10,774 nucleotides of DNA from a virus. Taxonomy: Duplodnaviria > Heunggongvirae > Uroviricota > Caudoviricetes. The notes under the pieces were generated by a model. That model made no database searches, was not told the DNA's origin, and was given only the letters and a program-made list of their open reading frames with translations. Below are positions 131-10,774 of the stretch, in pieces. A program made the position numbers and the translations under genes. Within the stretch, counting starts at the first letter, position 1. The number at the start of each line of letters is the position of its first letter. Location: IMG/VR virus record IMGVR_UViG_2531839477_000013; one strand, 5' to 3'.

Positions 131-304
131 TATCGCGCCCTCAACAATGAGTTTTGTGATGCGGTGCCTGGTGCCTCCAGGTGACGTTAACCAGTTAACA
201 ATTAACGCCGGATACAGAGAATCCAACCATAACACTGTTTTTGGTTTTAACTGTTCCGCGTGCGCTTAGCCGCATTCACCGCATCACAAAATTCACTTTA
301 AAAA

Positions 305-357
305 GGGCGGCAGAGCAGTCACGGAGTAAAACTGATACCGCCAAACGTCACCAGAAA
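305..357 (-). ncRNA. dicF: DicF small RNA (ftsZ-targeting sRNA of the dicB operon)
   Basis: Reverse complement of 305..357 reads TTTCTGGTGACGTTTGGCGGTATCAGTTTTACTCCGTGACTGCTCTGCCGCCC followed by a T5 run (plus 300-304 is A5). This is the 53-nt DicF sequence as I recall it, in the expected place between ydfC and dicB. Exact processed ends not verifiable here. Confidence 0.85.
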
Positions 358-5535: not shown

Positions 5536-5715
5536 ATGAAAAACGCATTGCAGTTTTTGTTTGTTGCGTTCTGGTTGTTCGCATCATGTATGCCCATCAT
5601 CTTCACAGCAAGGTATATGGAAAAAGTTGATGTTTTGATATTAATATTTGGATATATAAATGCCCTTTTTTTAGGGGTGTTCATGGCGGTCATGTGCATT
5701 GAATACTGGCGGTAA
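5536..5715 (+). CDS. Small membrane protein, two predicted transmembrane helices (59 aa)
   Basis: ATG at 5536 preceded by GTAGGAGG (5524-5531). Product MKNALQFLFVAFWLFASCMPIIFTARYMEKVDVLILIFGYINALFLGVFMAVMCIEYWR. The track ORF 5497..5715 begins upstream. Sits in markedly AT-rich DNA. Confidence 0.5.
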   Translation: MKNALQFLFVAFWLFASCMPIIFTARYMEKVDVLILIFGYINALFLGVFMAVMCIEYWR

Positions 5716-6049
5716 ATACAGCGAACTCCATTGGTTTAGTTGGATATTTACTGTGCTGGACAAAAACGGTTTGCGGGGAAATCTTAGTTAAGTAGAATGA
5801 CTGCGGGTGCTTGAGGCTATCTGCCTCGGGCATGGACACCAACGGCAGATAGAGAAAAGCCCCAGTTAACATTACGCGTCCTGCAAGACGCTTAACATTA
5901 ATCTGAGGCCAATTTCATGCTAGACACATGTAGGTTAGCCTCTTACGTGCCGAAAGGCACGGAGAAGCAGGCTATTGTTAACACCAAGCTGTAATGTCCC
6001 CTTTGAACCATTCAAAAATGTCCCCAGACAATTCTCTGGGGGATTTTTC

Positions 6050-7390
6050 ATGATCAAAGAGACTGTTACGATGAGTCATAAGGAACTCCACCGACTTCAG
6101 ATTATTCAGGAGTCAATTAATCGACATATTACTCAGGAACAAGCTGCGGCACGCATTGGCATTTCTATTCGGCAGGTTAAACGTCTGGTGCAACGGTATA
6201 GAAATGAAGGGCCTTCTGGTCTGGTTTCCCACCGACGTGGAAAGCGTCCTAATAATTCCTTTTCTACTGAATTCAGAGCAACAGTAATTTCACTCCTCAA
6301 AGGCCGTTACGCTGATTTTGGACCTACGTTTGCGTGCGAAAAATTGCGCGAGATACACGGTTTATCTTTATCCGTTGAAACTCTCAGAAAGTGGATGATA
6401 GAAGAGGGGTTATGGCGTGAACGCCGTCGTAAAATTGCCCGTATATATCAACGCCGCATGCGACGACCATCTTATGGTGAACTGATCCAGATTGATGGCT
6501 CACCTCATGACTGGTTTGAAAATCGAGGCCCCAGATGTACACTGATCGTTTTCATTGATGATGCCACCAGTGCGTTGATGGCGTTGCGTTTTGTGCCTGC
6601 TGAAACAACCCGGGCTTACATGGAAACCCTCCGGGGTTACCTTAATGATCATGGCGTACCGCTCGCTCTCTACTCTGATAGACACAGTATATTCAGGGTA
6701 AATAACCCAGAGCGGGAAGGTGAGCTGACCCAGTTCACTCGTGCGATAAAGACACTGGGCATCGAGCCAATCCATGCCAACAGCCCGCAGGCAAAAGGGC
6801 GGGTAGAGCGCGCCAATCAGACACTACAGGACAGGCTGGTCAAAGAAATGCGGCTTCAGAATATCAGTGATATTGAAACAGCAAATGCATGGTTGCCGAC
6901 CTTTATTGAAGCCTATAACAACCGGTTCGCTACGTCGCCTCGTACTACTGATAATGCTCATCTTGATGTGCACCATTCTGAAGAGGAACTGGGTTATATC
7001 TTCAGCCTACAGGCGAAGCGCGTTCTGTCTAAAAATCTCACTTTCCAGTACAAAAGCAGTGCGTTTCAGGTACGCAGTGAGAGCCGGGGATATCGACTTA
7101 GGCATTCGGTTGTTACTGTATGCGAGAACTTTGACGGTGAAATTAACGTTCTGTATGACGGGAAAGCGCTGGGCTGGGAAAAGTATGTTGATGGCCCGGA
7201 GCCTATACCACTGGATGATGAAAAGAGTGTCCATGAACGAGTGGATAATGCCCGTATTGATTTACGCTCAAAATACTATGTTAAACCTAAAGCTGACCAT
7301 CCCTGGCTTACGCGCCGAACGCAAAGTCATCAGCAAGTTAAGCCCCCGAAGTTACCTAAAAAGAAGCCTGATCCCGATAAAAAAGATTGA
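6050..7390 (+). CDS. DDE transposase-like protein of the rve (integrase core) type, N-terminal HTH, 446 aa; IS481/ISNCY-like
   Basis: First in-frame ATG at 6050 after a GGGGGA Shine-Dalgarno (track ORF starts at TTG 5975). Catalytic-looking residues IQIDGS, LYSDRHS, GRVERANQTL. Probably the full-length counterpart of the intK fragment I recall in K-12 Qin. Element boundaries not identified. Confidence 0.82.
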   Translation: MIKETVTMSHKELHRLQIIQESINRHITQEQAAARIGISIRQVKRLVQRYRNEGPSGLVSHRRGKRPNNSFSTEFRATVISLLKGRYADFGPTFACEKLREIHGLSLSVETLRKWMIEEGLWRERRRKIARIYQRRMRRPSYGELIQIDGSPHDWFENRGPRCTLIVFIDDATSALMALRFVPAETTRAYMETLRGYLNDHGVPLALYSDRHSIFRVNNPEREGELTQFTRAIKTLGIEPIHANSPQAKGRVERANQTLQDRLVKEMRLQNISDIETANAWLPTFIEAYNNRFATSPRTTDNAHLDVHHSEEELGYIFSLQAKRVLSKNLTFQYKSSAFQVRSESRGYRLRHSVVTVCENFDGEINVLYDGKALGWEKYVDGPEPIPLDDEKSVHERVDNARIDLRSKYYVKPKADHPWLTRRTQSHQQVKPPKLPKKKPDPDKKD

Positions 7391-7786
7391 AACCAAGATC
7401 GATTCGGTTGAGTGCATATCCATTCATAGGGTAGATTCTTAAGTCGCGTTTCTGGTGTTCATTTTCGGGTGGTTTGTTACTTGTTTTACCGGGGATATGC
7501 CAGAAACGCGCTGAGTCAGTCTGGGCGGTGCGCGTAATGAGGCGTTATGGTAAATAGCCTATGCTAATGTCCGCTAAGAGCAAGAAGCGGAAGTTGGCAG
7601 TTTTGTGGACTGTCCCCACAAAAGTGACTACAGAAATAGTTGCAATTCATAATTGATCATGGGTTGTCAGTTAAACTCGTAGCGATTTAAATAGACTAAT
7701 TGGGAGTGCGTCCATTACTTATATCTTGTAATGTTAACTATCAGAAATGATACAAAGATAATATGTCTTTAAAGAAAAGGCTGATG

Positions 7787-7812
7787 GCGAAAAGTGGCCC
7801 GATGAGGGCCAC
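7787..7812 (-). terminator. Probable intrinsic terminator of flxA
   Basis: On the minus strand, stem GTGGCCC / GGGCCAC (plus 7794-7800 and 7806-7812) with a 5-nt loop, followed by CTTTTCG, 15 bp after the flxA stop. Confidence 0.55.
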
Positions 7813-7826
7813 AATACGGCTGTCAC

Positions 7827-8159
7827 TTAGACGTAAATATCAATGGTGCCAGCGGTATTTGTATCGTCTTTTTTCTCTTCTTTTTTATCAGGCTGAACTG
7901 TCGCGTCTTCATTCTTTTTCTCTGCCTGCTGCCTTAACAACTGCTCCAGTTGAGCCCAGAGGCTTTCAATTTGCTTCTGTACCAATGCAGCCATTTCTTT
8001 TTTCTGCTGTGTCGTCATCCCCTCTTCCGATGAGATTTTCCCAAGCTTTTCAGTCAGCACCTGAATTTGTCTTGTGATTTTGGCTATTTCTGATGTTCCT
8101 TCCGGGGCGGAGTTGTTTGAAATAACGGTTGAGGTATTTCCCTGAATTGTGACAGACAT
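7827..8159 (-). CDS. flxA: FlxA (sigma-28 dependent prophage protein), 110 aa
   Basis: 110-aa ORF MSVTIQGNTSTVISNNSAPEGTSEIAKITRQIQ..., matching FlxA as I recall it. AAGGAG Shine-Dalgarno 7 nt upstream of the ATG. Confidence 0.9.
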   Translation of the reverse strand: MSVTIQGNTSTVISNNSAPEGTSEIAKITRQIQVLTEKLGKISSEEGMTTQQKKEMAALVQKQIESLWAQLEQLLRQQAEKKNEDATVQPDKKEEKKDDTNTAGTIDIYV

Positions 8160-8182
8160 AGATTTCTCCTTTTAAAAAAGCA

Positions 8183-8209
8183 CTATCGGCATGAACAAAA
8201 AAATCTTTA
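8183..8209 (-). promoter_or_regulatory. FliA (sigma-28) promoter of flxA
   Basis: Minus strand reads TAAAGATT-N11-GCCGATAG, a close match to the sigma-28 consensus TAAAGTTT-N11-GCCGATAA, placed about 25 nt upstream of the flxA ATG. Confidence 0.8.
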
Positions 8210-8361
8210 ATCGTATTTCTTGTGTCATTAATTGTTTGATGTTCAGATTGTTTTCCTCGCGGGCTGGCGCGCCTCAGAAAGTAAAGCTTGTTGACAGGGG
8301 TAAACGTTCGGCAATAATTTTCTGCCGCATGCGGGTGTTGCATAAAACGTGTTACGTTCCT

Positions 8362-8667
8362 TTATCGACAGGTCAGGTCACCGCTCACCCGCCGACGAGA
8401 AAGCAACACTGACATGCTAAAGCAAAAAATAGATGAATAAGTTGAGTTGTGCATATGTAGCCTGACCGTCACAAAGTATATGGTGTCTGTACCAGTAAGA
8501 TGATGGCCGGACTCTTTAAAAACGAGCTGACCTGCACAATACAGGATGGACTTAGCAATGGCTGCTCCTGGCAGAAAGCGGACAGTGATCACCGTTCTTA
8601 CGACTACTTTCTGACTTCCTTCGTGACTTGCCCTAAGCATGTTGTAGTGCGATACTTGTAATGACAT
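8362..8667 (-). CDS. YdfV-like hypothetical ORF (101 aa), doubtful
   Basis: ORF length matches the 101-aa ydfV I recall between flxA and relB in K-12. The sequence has no recognisable features and its 5' end overlaps the relBE promoter-operator. Confidence 0.3.
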   Translation of the reverse strand: MSLQVSHYNMLRASHEGSQKVVVRTVITVRFLPGAAIAKSILYCAGQLVFKESGHHLTGTDTIYFVTVRLHMHNSTYSSIFCFSMSVLLSRRRVSGDLTCR

Positions 8668-8680
8668 TTGTAATTACAAG
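8628..8680 (+). promoter_or_regulatory. relBE promoter and operator: TTGCCC (8628-8633), 17-bp spacer, GATACT (8651-8656), operator repeats CTTGTAATGACATTTGTAATTACAAG (8655-8680)
   Basis: Hexamers and the TTGTAAT/ATTACAA palindrome read directly. Position immediately upstream of relB fits the autoregulated relBE operator. Confidence 0.65.
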
Positions 8681-8691
8681 AGGTGTAAGAC

Positions 8692-8931
8692 ATGGGTAGC
8701 ATTAACCTGCGTATTGACGATGAACTTAAAGCGCGTTCTTACGCCGCGCTTGAAAAAATGGGTGTAACTCCTTCTGAAGCGCTTCGTCTCATGCTCGAGT
8801 ATATCGCTGACAATGAACGCTTGCCGTTCAAACAGACACTCCTGAGTGATGAAGATGCTGAACTTGTGGAGATAGTGAAAGAACGGCTTCGTAATCCTAA
8901 GCCAGTACGTGTGACGCTGGATGAACTCTGA
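8692..8931 (+). CDS. relB: RelB antitoxin (79 aa)
   Basis: Product MGSINLRIDDELKARSYAALEKMGVTPSEALRLMLEYIADNERLPFKQTLLSDEDAELVEIVKERLRNPKPVRVTLDEL is near-identical to K-12 RelB as I recall it. Its stop overlaps the relE start by 1 nt. Confidence 0.95.
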   Translation: MGSINLRIDDELKARSYAALEKMGVTPSEALRLMLEYIADNERLPFKQTLLSDEDAELVEIVKERLRNPKPVRVTLDEL

Positions 8932-9218
8932 TGGCGTATTTTCTGGATTTTGACGAGCGGGCACTAAAGGAATGGCGAAAGCTGGGCTCGACGGTACGTG
9001 AACAGTTGAAAAAGAAGCTGGTTGAAGTACTTGAGTCACCCCGGATTGAAGCAAACAAGCTCCGTGGTATGCCTGATTGTTACAAGATTAAGCTCCGGTC
9101 TTCAGGCTATCGCCTTGTATACCAGGTTATAGACGAGAAAGTTGTCGTTTTCGTGATTTCTGTTGGGAAAAGAGAACGCTCGGAAGTATATAGCGAGGCG
9201 GTCAAACGCATTCTCTGA
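8931..9218 (+). CDS. relE: RelE toxin (mRNA interferase), 95 aa
   Basis: Product MAYFLDFDERALKEWRKLGSTVREQLKKKLVEVLESPRIEANKLRGMPDCYKIKLRSSGYRLVYQVIDEKVVVFVISVGKRERSEVYSEAVKRIL matches RelE as I recall it. Confidence 0.95.
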   Translation: MAYFLDFDERALKEWRKLGSTVREQLKKKLVEVLESPRIEANKLRGMPDCYKIKLRSSGYRLVYQVIDEKVVVFVISVGKRERSEVYSEAVKRIL

Positions 9219-9289
9219 ACCAAAGCATGACATCTCTGTTTCGCACCGAAGGTGACACTTCTGCTTTGCGTTGACAGGAGAAGCAGGCT

Positions 9290-9445
9290 ATGAAGCAGCA
9301 AAAGGCGATGTTAATCGCCCTGATCGTCATCTGTTTAACCGTCATAGTGACGGCACTGGTAACGAGGAAAGACCTCTGCGAGGTACGAATCCGAACCGGC
9401 CAGACGGAGGTCGCTGTCTTCACAGCTTACGAACCTGAGGAGTAA
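9290..9445 (+). CDS. hokD: HokD (RelF) Hok-family membrane toxin, 51 aa, below the ORF-track cutoff
   Basis: Hand translation gives MKQQKAMLIALIVICLTVIVTALVTRKDLCEVRIRTGQTEVAVFTAYEPEE with TAA at 9443-9445. A typical Hok sequence, in the expected place after relE. Confidence 0.9.
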   Translation: MKQQKAMLIALIVICLTVIVTALVTRKDLCEVRIRTGQTEVAVFTAYEPEE

Positions 9446-9467: not shown

Positions 9468-10774
9468 CATAAGCGCTAACTTAAGGGTTGTGGTATTACG
9501 CCTGATATGATTTAACGTGCCGATGAATTACTCTCACGATAACTGGTCAGCAATTCTGGCCCATATTGGTAAGCCCGAAGAACTGGATACTTCGGCACGT
9601 AATGCCGGGGCTCTAACCCGCCGCCGCGAAATTCGTGATGCTGCAACTCTGCTACGTCTGGGGCTGGCTTACGGCCCCGGGGGGATGTCATTACGTGAAG
9701 TCACTGCATGGGCTCAGCTCCATGACGTTGCAACATTATCTGACGTGGCTCTCCTGAAGCGGCTGCGGAATGCCGCCGACTGGTTTGGCATACTTGCCGC
9801 ACAAACACTTGCTGTACGCGCCGCAGTTACGGGTTGTACAAGCGGAAAGAGATTGCGTCTTGTCGATGGAACAGCAATCAGTGCGCCCGGGGGCGGCAGC
9901 GCTGAATGGCGACTACATATGGGATATGATCCTCATACCTGTCAGTTCACTGATTTTGAGCTAACCGACAGCAGAGACGCTGAACGGCTGGACCGATTTG
10001 CGCAAACGGCAGACGAGATACGCATTGCTGACCGGGGATTCGGTTCGCGTCCCGAATGTATCCGCTCACTTGCTTTTGGAGAAGCTGATTATATCGTCCG
10101 GGTTCACTGGCGAGGATTGCGCTGGTTAACTGCAGAAGGAATGCGCTTTGACATGATGGGTTTTCTGCGCGGGCTGGATTGCGGTAAGAACGGTGAAACC
10201 ACTGTAATGATAGGCAATTCAGGTAATAAAAAAGCCGGAGCTCCCTTTCCGGCACGTCTCATTGCCGTATCACTTCCTCCCGAAAAAGCATTAATCAGTA
10301 AAACCCGACTGCTCAGCGAGAATCGTCGAAAAGGACGAGTAGTTCAGGCGGAAACGCTGGAAGCAGCGGGCCATGTGCTATTGCTAACATCATTACCGGA
10401 AGATGAATATTCAGCAGAGCAAGTGGCTGATTGTTACCGTCTGCGATGGCAAATTGAACTGGCTTTTAAGCGGCTCAAAAGTTTGCTGCACCTGGATGCT
10501 TTGCGTGCAAAGGAACCTGAACTCGCGAAAGCGTGGATATTTGCTAATCTACTCGCCGCATTTTTAATTGACGACATAATCCAGCCATCGCTGGATTTCC
10601 CCCCCAGAAGTGCCGGATCCGAAAAGAAGAACTAACTCGTTGTGGAGAATAACAAAAATGGTCATCTGGAGCTTACAGGTGGCCATTCGTGGGACAGTAT
10701 CCCTGACAGCCTACAAAACGCAATTGAAGAACGCGAGGCATCGTCTTAACGAGGCACCGAGGCGTCGCATTCTT
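9468..10774 (+). mobile_element. IS186 (IS4 family), left end at 9468; right end lies about 30 bp beyond the window
   Basis: The sequence from CATAAGCGCTAACTTAAGGGTTG (9468-) matches the IS186 left terminus as I recall it. The window ends inside the element just before the expected right inverted repeat. Inserted 22 bp after the hokD stop in a GC-rich site (GGCGGGGGAGAATCC). Confidence 0.88.
9523..10635 (+). CDS. insL: IS186 transposase (IS4 family, DDE), 370 aa
   Basis: ATG at 9523 (track ORF starts at GTG 9517). Product MNYSHDNWSAILAHIGKPEELD... with the IS4-family Y-x2-R-x3-E-x6-K motif (YRLRWQIELAFKRLK). Confidence 0.9.
   Translation: MNYSHDNWSAILAHIGKPEELDTSARNAGALTRRREIRDAATLLRLGLAYGPGGMSLREVTAWAQLHDVATLSDVALLKRLRNAADWFGILAAQTLAVRAAVTGCTSGKRLRLVDGTAISAPGGGSAEWRLHMGYDPHTCQFTDFELTDSRDAERLDRFAQTADEIRIADRGFGSRPECIRSLAFGEADYIVRVHWRGLRWLTAEGMRFDMMGFLRGLDCGKNGETTVMIGNSGNKKAGAPFPARLIAVSLPPEKALISKTRLLSENRRKGRVVQAETLEAAGHVLLLTSLPEDEYSAEQVADCYRLRWQIELAFKRLKSLLHLDALRAKEPELAKAWIFANLLAAFLIDDIIQPSLDFPPRSAGSEKKN

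Follow-up and report, generated by a model that had tools for sequence, protein, structure and literature searches.

A probable IS1202-family transposon with replaceable cargo between the leader and the reading frame of a prophage hok locus

Introduction

An intact transposase gene in phage DNA raises the question of which unit it moves, if it moves one at all. The DNA considered here is a stretch of 10,774 nucleotides (nt) from a virus of the Caudoviricetes (IMG/VR record IMGVR_UViG_2531839477_000013), called the window below when the whole stretch is meant, and the gene is referred to as tnp. An earlier note, made from the letters alone, had placed a transposase-like gene with unidentified ends at about 5990-7625 and left three options for it: an active insertion sequence (IS), a domesticated phage gene, or the carrier of an adjacent passenger islet. 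As judged from sequence comparisons, it is highly probable that a single transposon of 3301 bp, a member of the IS1202 family (ISEsa1 type), occupies window positions 5976-9276, with replaceable cargo and a preference for inserting in front of hok genes. It is the third of the options that fits, with the toxin-antitoxin pair relBE carried as well. Loci used for comparison are designated by L numbers.

Ends and target duplication

The mobile unit comprises a left end, tnp, a cer-like Xer site, flxA, ydfV, relBE and a right end (Table 1). Its tips are 5'-TGT...ACA-3', and the terminal inverted repeats agree at 16 of 22 positions (21 of 28). At the left junction (5975/5976) the sequence reads ...GGAGAAGCAGGCTAT/TGTTAACACC..., with TGTTAAC as the tip; at the right one (9276/9277) it reads ...GCGTTGACA/GGAGAAGCAGGCTATGAAG..., the tip GTTGACA being followed by GGAGAAGCAGGCTATG, with the hokD ATG at 9290.

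These boundaries can be read from empty sites. Comparison with Escherichia coli genomes identifies window 5700-5975 as the leader of a hok/sok locus. In prophages with an empty site (L005, L006) this leader is joined directly to hokD, a structured sok leader and a Hok frame of about 50 amino acids (aa) being contiguous; in the window 3.3 kb separate them. The match to the Rfam model RF01794 ends precisely where the element begins in four occupied sites (the window, L008, L009 and L010), and where the site is empty, in L006 and L091, it extends into the start of hok. Removal of 5976-9291 in silico leaves a sequence that matches the hok locus of phage mEp460 at 241 of 245 positions without gaps, and 14 of the 15 phage records listed match the empty site as a two-piece hit of 244-245 bp. 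Comparison with empty sites in related prophages and phages, the check that the earlier note had proposed, yielded both the ends and the 15-bp target duplication.

Each end also has an internal architecture. In both, the motif A(A/G)TGTC(C/A)CC occurs twice, at nt 18-26 and at nt 42-50, which agrees with the description of IS1202-family elements, where the inner repeat domain of each end is accompanied by an additional internal binding site (PMC10132070). The 5'-TGT tip and the nt 18-26 motif are kept in relatives from Scandinavium, Hahella and the Chromatiales. The layout with two repeats is kept in relatives whose transposases are just 62% identical, the nt 42-50 repeat being found as far as Hahella, and every enterobacterial relative has this same right end. 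The TGT/ACA tips, the imperfect repeats of 22-28 bp, the second block near position 20 and the 15-bp duplication (5-6, 15-17 or 27-28 bp in the family, depending on subgroup) are all as expected for an IS1202 member.

Table 1. Features of the transposon and its target locus, in window coordinates. IRL and IRR, left and right terminal inverted repeat; ORF, open reading frame; HTH, helix-turn-helix.
Feature	Position	Strand	Evidence or remarks
hok/sok leader left behind, target locus	5805..5976	+	Rfam RF01794 (sok), 104 bits, full model 1-157
Left target-site duplication copy, GGAGAAGCAGGCTAT	5961..5975	.	15 bp, identical to 9277-9291; single copy in empty sites
IRL, TGTTAACACCAAGCTGTAATGTCCCCTT	5976..6003	+	inner conserved part AATGTCCCC at 5993-6001; pairs with reverse complement of right end
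Left subterminal repeat, AATGTCCCC	6017..6025	+	nt 42-50 of element; presumed second transposase-binding site
Hairpin, subterminal repeat paired with tnp ribosome-binding site, then T-run	6021..6042	+	terminator-like site prediction
tnp, intact DDE transposase, IS1202 family, ISEsa1 type	6050..7390	+	446 aa; Pfam and NCBIfam matches, catalytic residues
cer-like Xer site	7407..7555	+	core 7527-7555, GGTGCGCGTAA-TGAGGCG-TTATGGTAAAT; presumed accessory sequence upstream
Palindrome, AATGTCCGCT-N10-AGCGGAAGTT	7566..7595	.	end of conserved left module, left cargo boundary
Variable cargo segment	7596..8563	.	flxA and most of ydfV ORF; swapped for other genes in relatives
flxA, passenger	7827..8159	-	annotated in identical DNA; placed by tblastn
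ydfV ORF, passenger, doubtful as a real gene	8362..8667	-	annotation; 5' part overlaps relBE upstream region
Conserved right module	8564..9276	+	second-palindrome half (CTGGCAGAAAGCGGAC), relBE promoter region, relB, relE, right end
relB, antitoxin	8692..8931	+	NCBIfam PRK11235, 133 bits
relE, toxin	8931..9218	+	NCBIfam RelE_StbE, 54.7 bits
Right subterminal repeat, GATGTCATG on minus strand	9227..9235	-	nt 42-50 from right tip
IRR, ending ...GCGTTGACA-3'	9249..9276	-	inner motif GGTGACACT at 9251-9259
Right target-site duplication copy	9277..9291	.	includes hok ribosome-binding site and AT of start codon
hokD reading frame of target locus	9290..9445	+	annotated in identical DNA; 72 nt behind relE

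The earlier note had reported no matching terminal inverted repeats. This is correct just within the range that it considered, and inverted repeats with sensible tips were likewise not found within 5700-7800; the ends were missed because the right one lies 1.65 kb past that range. The element begins slightly to the left of the extent given there and reaches far beyond it to the right, to include relBE, and neither the target duplication, nor the hok/sok target, nor the Xer site had been noticed. The motifs quoted in the note are all present (5993-6001, 6017-6025, 7601-7623 and 7445-7455/7500-7510), and the AATGTCCCC pair does belong to the left end. Words resembling AATGTCCCC number four in the window against 2.2 expected, a count reached in 40 of 200 shuffles; the pair is considered meaningful, although its count is not above chance, because its position (nt 18-26 and 42-50) is conserved out to Hahella. 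The other two proposed end signals did not hold up: the third TGTCCCC with its hairpin (7601-7623) is cargo-specific sequence, absent from other cargo variants, and the 10-bp inverted repeat lies inside the cer-like Xer site region. Two further candidates were also rejected. A 15/22 match between 5989-6010 and 7482-7503 lacks TGT/ACA tips and flanking repeats and falls in the cer-like region, and position 7595, where the plasmid alignments all stop, proved to be a cargo boundary.

Between the left end and tnp there is a predicted hairpin followed by a run of T residues (Table 1). The RNA fold of 5990-6075 has a free energy of -27.3 kcal/mol (z = -3.76), and none of 200 shuffled sequences was as stable. 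The hairpin presumably shields tnp from read-through from the hok promoter, a role suggested because the element always sits downstream of that promoter.

Transposase

The tnp product is identical at 445 of 446 residues to WP_004196353.1, named "IS1202-like element ISEsa1 family transposase" by NCBI and borne by many plasmids. Its N-terminus matches four overlapping Pfam HTH families (HTH_28, HTH_29, HTH_32 and HTH_23), its integrase core matches rve_3, and the NCBIfam ISNCY_2 transposase model covers the whole product with 466 bits (cut-off 250). The catalytic residues are D149, D210 and E254; the additional D170/D171 and Q261 (E+7) are the IS1202 family signature as given in 10.1101/2022.12.17.520857. 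The description in the earlier note of an intact 446-aa gene with an N-terminal HTH and D, D and E motifs is confirmed by the domain models and residue positions. If translation is counted from the second methionine (Met8) the product has 439 aa, in agreement with the transposase length listed for ISEsa1. A sequence search of solved structures with the transposase gave no match.

Other copies and insertion sites

Between the window, the pnd locus of an E. coli IncI/K plasmid (L008) and a hok locus of an Enterobacter IncF plasmid (L009), copies of the element show 99.6-99.9% identity; for the 200-bp flanks of these three copies the figure is just 55-61%. Both plasmid copies have perfect 15-bp duplications of their own (TGGAGGGGCTATGAT in L008, GGAGAAGAAGGCCAT in L009), and further perfect 15-bp duplications are found at separate sites (GGAGAAAAAGGCTAT, GGAGAAGTCAGCTAT, GGAGAAGAAGCCATG and others). 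Plasmids of at least five genera carry the element. Among complete E. coli genomes it is present in complete form in 760 of 5426, at a median of one and a maximum of three places per genome, and it is found as well in the isolated temperate phage PhiR42_1.

For a survey of relatives, the transposase was scanned against one genome per species, and ends and duplications were located by scripts. Among the relatives, 17 sites have a target duplication of 15 bp and 11 sites one of 16 bp. The occupied hok-type loci number about 12, with hokD-, hokE-, pndA- and hok/flm-like toxins, and the pattern is that of a targeted transposon: near-identical elements in dissimilar flanks, each site with its own duplication. 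Within these enterobacterial hok loci the position is constant, the duplication beginning directly after GGCAA, 3' of a short hairpin (GCCGNAAGGC in most) that closes the hok leader, and so is the orientation wherever both ends were located, with the left end toward the leader. Hahella has at least 12 copies of a cargo-free relative of 1449 bp at unrelated sites. The long duplication is a property of the group, since this cargo-free relative also makes duplications of 15-16 bp.

CAA stands just before the duplication at many non-hok sites and at many Hahella sites. In Hahella sp. SMD15-11 (L030-L040, L057) several sites have (G/T)(T/C)CAA before a 15-16-bp duplication, and there is one tandem pair; the short sequence seems to reflect a preference shared by the whole group. 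Two hok sites have more complex arrangements. At L026 (6654-11600) two related elements are in tandem in one site, the first of them flanked by just a 10-bp repeat, and at L025 (about 9927) a left end abuts an inverted hok start, which points to a rearrangement between elements.

Alternative explanations

An autonomous IS of about 1.6 kb (roughly 5976-7590), with flxA, ydfV and relBE as plain prophage neighbours, would agree with the published entry for ISEsa1, listed with 1609 bp, a 15/22 inverted repeat, a 439-aa transposase and no target (PMC10132070). It would agree also with the end of the conserved left module at about 7581-7606, and the weak 15/22 match already mentioned could supply its ends. 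It is nevertheless very improbable. A right end near 7500-7600 has neither a TGT/ACA tip nor a direct repeat, and for an element defined in this way that paper found no target duplication "when multiple examples were examined" (PMC10132070). No cargo-free 1.6-kb copy with duplications was found among the enterobacterial loci examined, and it is the whole 3301-bp unit that moves from one replicon to another, unrelated one, bounded by perfect duplications at 5976 and 9276. Spread by homologous recombination or module exchange between hok loci, rather than by transposition, has as little to recommend it. The hok leaders and frames that flank every copy are possible homology, and L007 does combine the same duplication and right flank with a different left flank, but the flanks are far less similar than the block between them, each site duplicates its own 15 bp exactly at the TGT/ACA tips, and non-hok sites and Hahella copies show 15-16-bp duplications as well. 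That tnp is a domesticated or decaying gene fixed in Qin-type prophages, as one of the options in the earlier note had it, is scarcely credible. K-12 and many other strains do keep only fragments or a form with a 27-bp deletion, and an automatic pseudogene flag has been attached to the gene (see below). However, the ORF is intact and differs by a single residue from plasmid copies, near-identical copies occupy unrelated plasmid loci, and there are many related phages and prophages without the element; the empty sites and plasmid copies already contradict such a reading.

A subtler alternative accepts transposition and concerns the choice of target: the element could have only a weak sequence preference (CAA next to the duplication), with the bias toward hok arising from tolerance or advantage of such insertions and from movement of the replicons. 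CAA does precede the duplication at many unrelated sites, Hahella included, non-hok insertions exist, and the databases sampled are rich in plasmids and prophages. This is unlikely given that some 12 hok-type loci have been entered at the same nucleotide and in the same orientation, that elements are found in tandem in one hok site (L026), and that copy number is low in E. coli.

The reading preferred here, a cargo-bearing transposon that favours hok loci, also has points that weigh against it or limit it. Relatives occur at non-hok sites (L014, L023, L028, L042 and L080), so that hok targeting is a strong preference and not absolute, and part of that preference could reflect survival of insertions. 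The Prokaryotic Genome Annotation Pipeline (PGAP) calls the 6050-7390 ORF a pseudogene in E. coli chromosomes (L001, L007), with the label "missing C-terminus" and a separate ydfW gene, and labels the plasmid ORF of the same length (L009) intact; the call looks like an artefact of the K-12 ydfW annotation carried over. In many E. coli copies the first HTH of the transposase is shortened by an in-frame deletion of 27 bp, and it is likely that not all copies of the element are active. The predicted co-transcription of hokD with relBE is based on the absence of a predicted terminator and on the K-12 literature. Finally, transposition, transposase binding and target recognition are inferred from the sequences. 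As to the deletion itself, it falls between two 14-bp direct repeats (6098-6111 and 6125-6138), of which the window has the undeleted form; carriers include PhiR42_1 (L092), E. coli C and others.

Internal organization

Downstream of tnp, the XerD arm of the cer-like site is identical to that of ColE1 cer (11/11) and its XerC arm matches that of E. coli dif at 10 of 11 positions (reference sequences from PMC2410131). The core has the expected plan of an 11-bp XerC arm, a spacer of 6-8 bp and an 11-bp XerD arm, and the site is kept in all enterobacterial relatives. Sites of the cer type have some 180 bp of accessory sequence beside the XerC arm and depend on XerCD, ArgR and PepA. Here, 110-150 nt upstream of the core share 73-80% identity with non-coding DNA found in thousands of small mobilizable plasmids (2-15 kb), in alignments that stop at the XerD arm, which fits a putative accessory sequence of the site. 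The internal position of this Xer site is worth noting in that another branch of the IS1202 family targets Xer sites.

Between the conserved left and right modules the cargo varies. Homology between cargo variants breaks at the palindrome at 7566-7595. The cargo segment of this element is slightly AT-rich, with a GC content of 0.39-0.44 vs 0.48-0.52 in tnp, and other cargo variants retain no more of ydfV than its first 20-39 codons. The right module is 96-99% identical between elements with different cargo, and relB is beside the right end in 13 enterobacterial elements. Other sizes were found besides the 3301-bp form with flxA and ydfV. Forms of 4486 and 9083 bp have other cargo, one of 4600 bp has genes for a cytochrome b and a cation-diffusion transporter, and one of 12843 bp has the ncrYCBA nickel and chrBA chromate genes, all with the same ends and relBE; those of 5822, 6093 and 7320 bp are the 4600-bp form with secondary IS insertions in palindromes. 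The 12.8-kb variant was first predicted from the model, and its right end, its own duplication (GGAGAAGTCAGCTAT) and the hok frame were then located where expected.

The 10-bp arms of the boundary palindrome are perfect in L010, and secondary IS insertions lie within the palindrome in L012, L014 and L027. The cargo is flanked by related palindromes of the form GTCCGCT-N10-AGCGGAC (7566-7595 and about 8564-8584, and also in L010, L012, L014, L027, L028 and L042), and in the elements from Scandinavium such palindromes are present more than twice over, in several copies. In the left palindrome the arms resemble the transposase-binding motif AATGTCC. These palindromes may be sites of cassette exchange. 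The flxA cargo alone, from palindrome to palindrome (7567-8583), is present at 3001-4017 of L093, on the chromosome of E. coli EC6622, without tnp or relBE; this segment was examined for the mechanism of cargo capture and gave no clue.

The target locus and the E. coli K-12 remnant

Insertion at this site cuts the hok frame off from its promoter, from mok and from the Sok-regulated leader. It doubles the hok ribosome-binding site and sets hok 72 nt behind relE, giving a relB-relE-hokD arrangement. No terminator-like site is predicted between 9218 and 9290. On the leader side, mok is shortened by a TAA in the left tip, and the annotation of L009 has the shortened form as a DUF5431 protein of 21 aa.

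In E. coli K-12 the part before window position 7206 is gone, and the DNA is identical from 7206 to 9445. Its ydfW corresponds to 7241-7390, the last 49 codons of tnp, which bears out the suggestion in the earlier note that tnp is the intact form of a fragment in the K-12 Qin prophage. The remnant reads ydfW-flxA-ydfV-relBE-right end-hokD, and a remnant of a ydaT-like gene (ydfX) is joined to tnp codon 386. A later deletion from the ydaT-like gene into tnp would have left this order, and K-12 hokD would follow relBE without a leader of its own because an insertion was followed by a deletion. Missing from the region known there as relBE-hokD (relBEF) and ydfW/intK are the left end, the hok leader and 86% of tnp, and with them gone the transposon can be neither recognised nor mobilised in K-12.

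A DicF RNA match (305-356, minus strand, 77 bits) and an STnc100 match (153-293, minus strand, 38.6 bits, under the gathering score of the family), with surrounding repressor, replication and antiterminator genes, identify the window as a lambdoid prophage of the Qin/Rac type. About 70 bp past hokD starts an ORF for an IS4-family transposase (9517-10635, 372 aa; NCBIfam IS4_1, 133 bits), so that a second mobile element adjoins the same hok gene.

Relation to known elements

With four ORFs besides the transposase gene, the element does not conform to a simple IS (1.3-2.0 kb, transposase as sole ORF) and would be classed as a transporter IS or a transposon. Compared with the published description of ISEsa1, which belongs to the family formerly called the ISNCY/IS1202 group, it has the same type of transposase according to the NCBI family label, and its left module, from 5976 to about 7590 (about 1610 bp), has the length listed for the whole of ISEsa1. 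It differs in its full length of 3301 bp, four passenger ORFs, Xer site, 16/22 repeat, 15-bp duplication and specific target. We infer that the published entry describes the left arm only. A search for the ISEsa1 reference in its source strain, C. sakazakii BAA-894, covered pESA2 and the first 50 kb of pESA3 and found it in neither. ISEsa1 has been set in a small branch separate from the ISTde1 subgroup (PMC10132070), and a companion survey (10.1101/2022.12.17.520857) does not mention it, naming passenger genes in five other members alone.

Within the family, the ISAjo2/ISAba32 subgroup, which targets pdif/dif sites, shares the TGT/ACA tips, the inner repeats, and oriented insertion at a fixed distance with no helper protein. 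Its duplications are 5-6 bp and its insertions 5 bp (5-6 bp) from the XerC arm of a site that lies beside the element, whereas here the duplication is 15 bp, the targets are hok leaders and the Xer site is internal. The ISTde1 subgroup has similarly long duplications (15-17 bp), but no cargo or target specificity has been reported for it. Passenger genes between tnp and the right end are also found in ISKpn21, ISKpn65 and ISRel10, transporter ISs of the same family, which have one unrelated hypothetical gene each; the present element differs in its constant relBE right module and its exchangeable, palindrome-bounded central cargo of up to about 10 kb. More distantly, Tn7 is comparable in that the transposase is TnsB-like according to the literature, and in its TGT...ACA ends, internal binding repeats, cargo and oriented homing (PMC10132070). 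No homologues of TnsA, TnsC, TnsD or TnsE are present here, however, the duplication is 15 bp instead of 5 bp, and the target is a hok leader instead of glmS.

Implications

To judge from conservation and the family literature, the DDE transposase would bind the two A(A/G)TGTC(C/A)CC repeats at each end, cut at the TGT/ACA tips and join these to a target cut with a stagger of 15-16 nt; the 15-bp duplication itself is observed. The element encodes no targeting protein besides the transposase, its other ORFs being flxA, ydfV, relB and relE. More speculatively, a hok locus is the mark of a plasmid or prophage and may thus offer a landing site that is both safe and mobile, and the element may swap the addiction function that it destroys for its own relBE while adding a site for multimer resolution.

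A broader picture can be proposed with moderate confidence. In it, ISEsa1-type elements in general would be not ISs of 1.6 kb but "stability-swap" transposons of 3-13 kb that home to the hok/sok loci of plasmids and prophages, part hok from its promoter and leader and place it behind their own relBE, bring a cer-like site, and exchange cargo such as nickel, chromate and cation-efflux genes at palindromes, and one such insertion would have made the K-12 relBEF operon region. The gene family is known, but where the element truly ends, its 15-bp duplication, its modular cargo with a Xer site and relBE, and its targeting of hok appear to be undescribed. A search of open-access papers brought up no account of hok as a target, of relBE as cargo or of relBE-hokD arising from a transposon.

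Several consequences would follow. ISEsa1 is common in automatic annotation, and its published definition would have the wrong ends, no duplication and no target. The hok loci would be a second class of target for the IS1202 family, beside that of the branch homing to Xer sites, and the element would bring a type II toxin-antitoxin system into loci whose type I system it disrupts. Elements of this kind would also be a vehicle in which nickel, chromate and cation-efflux genes pass from one plasmid hok locus to another in Klebsiella, Enterobacter and Citrobacter. In E. coli K-12, the relB-relE-hokD arrangement would be the product of a transposon insertion, which would account for its leaderless hokD (relF).

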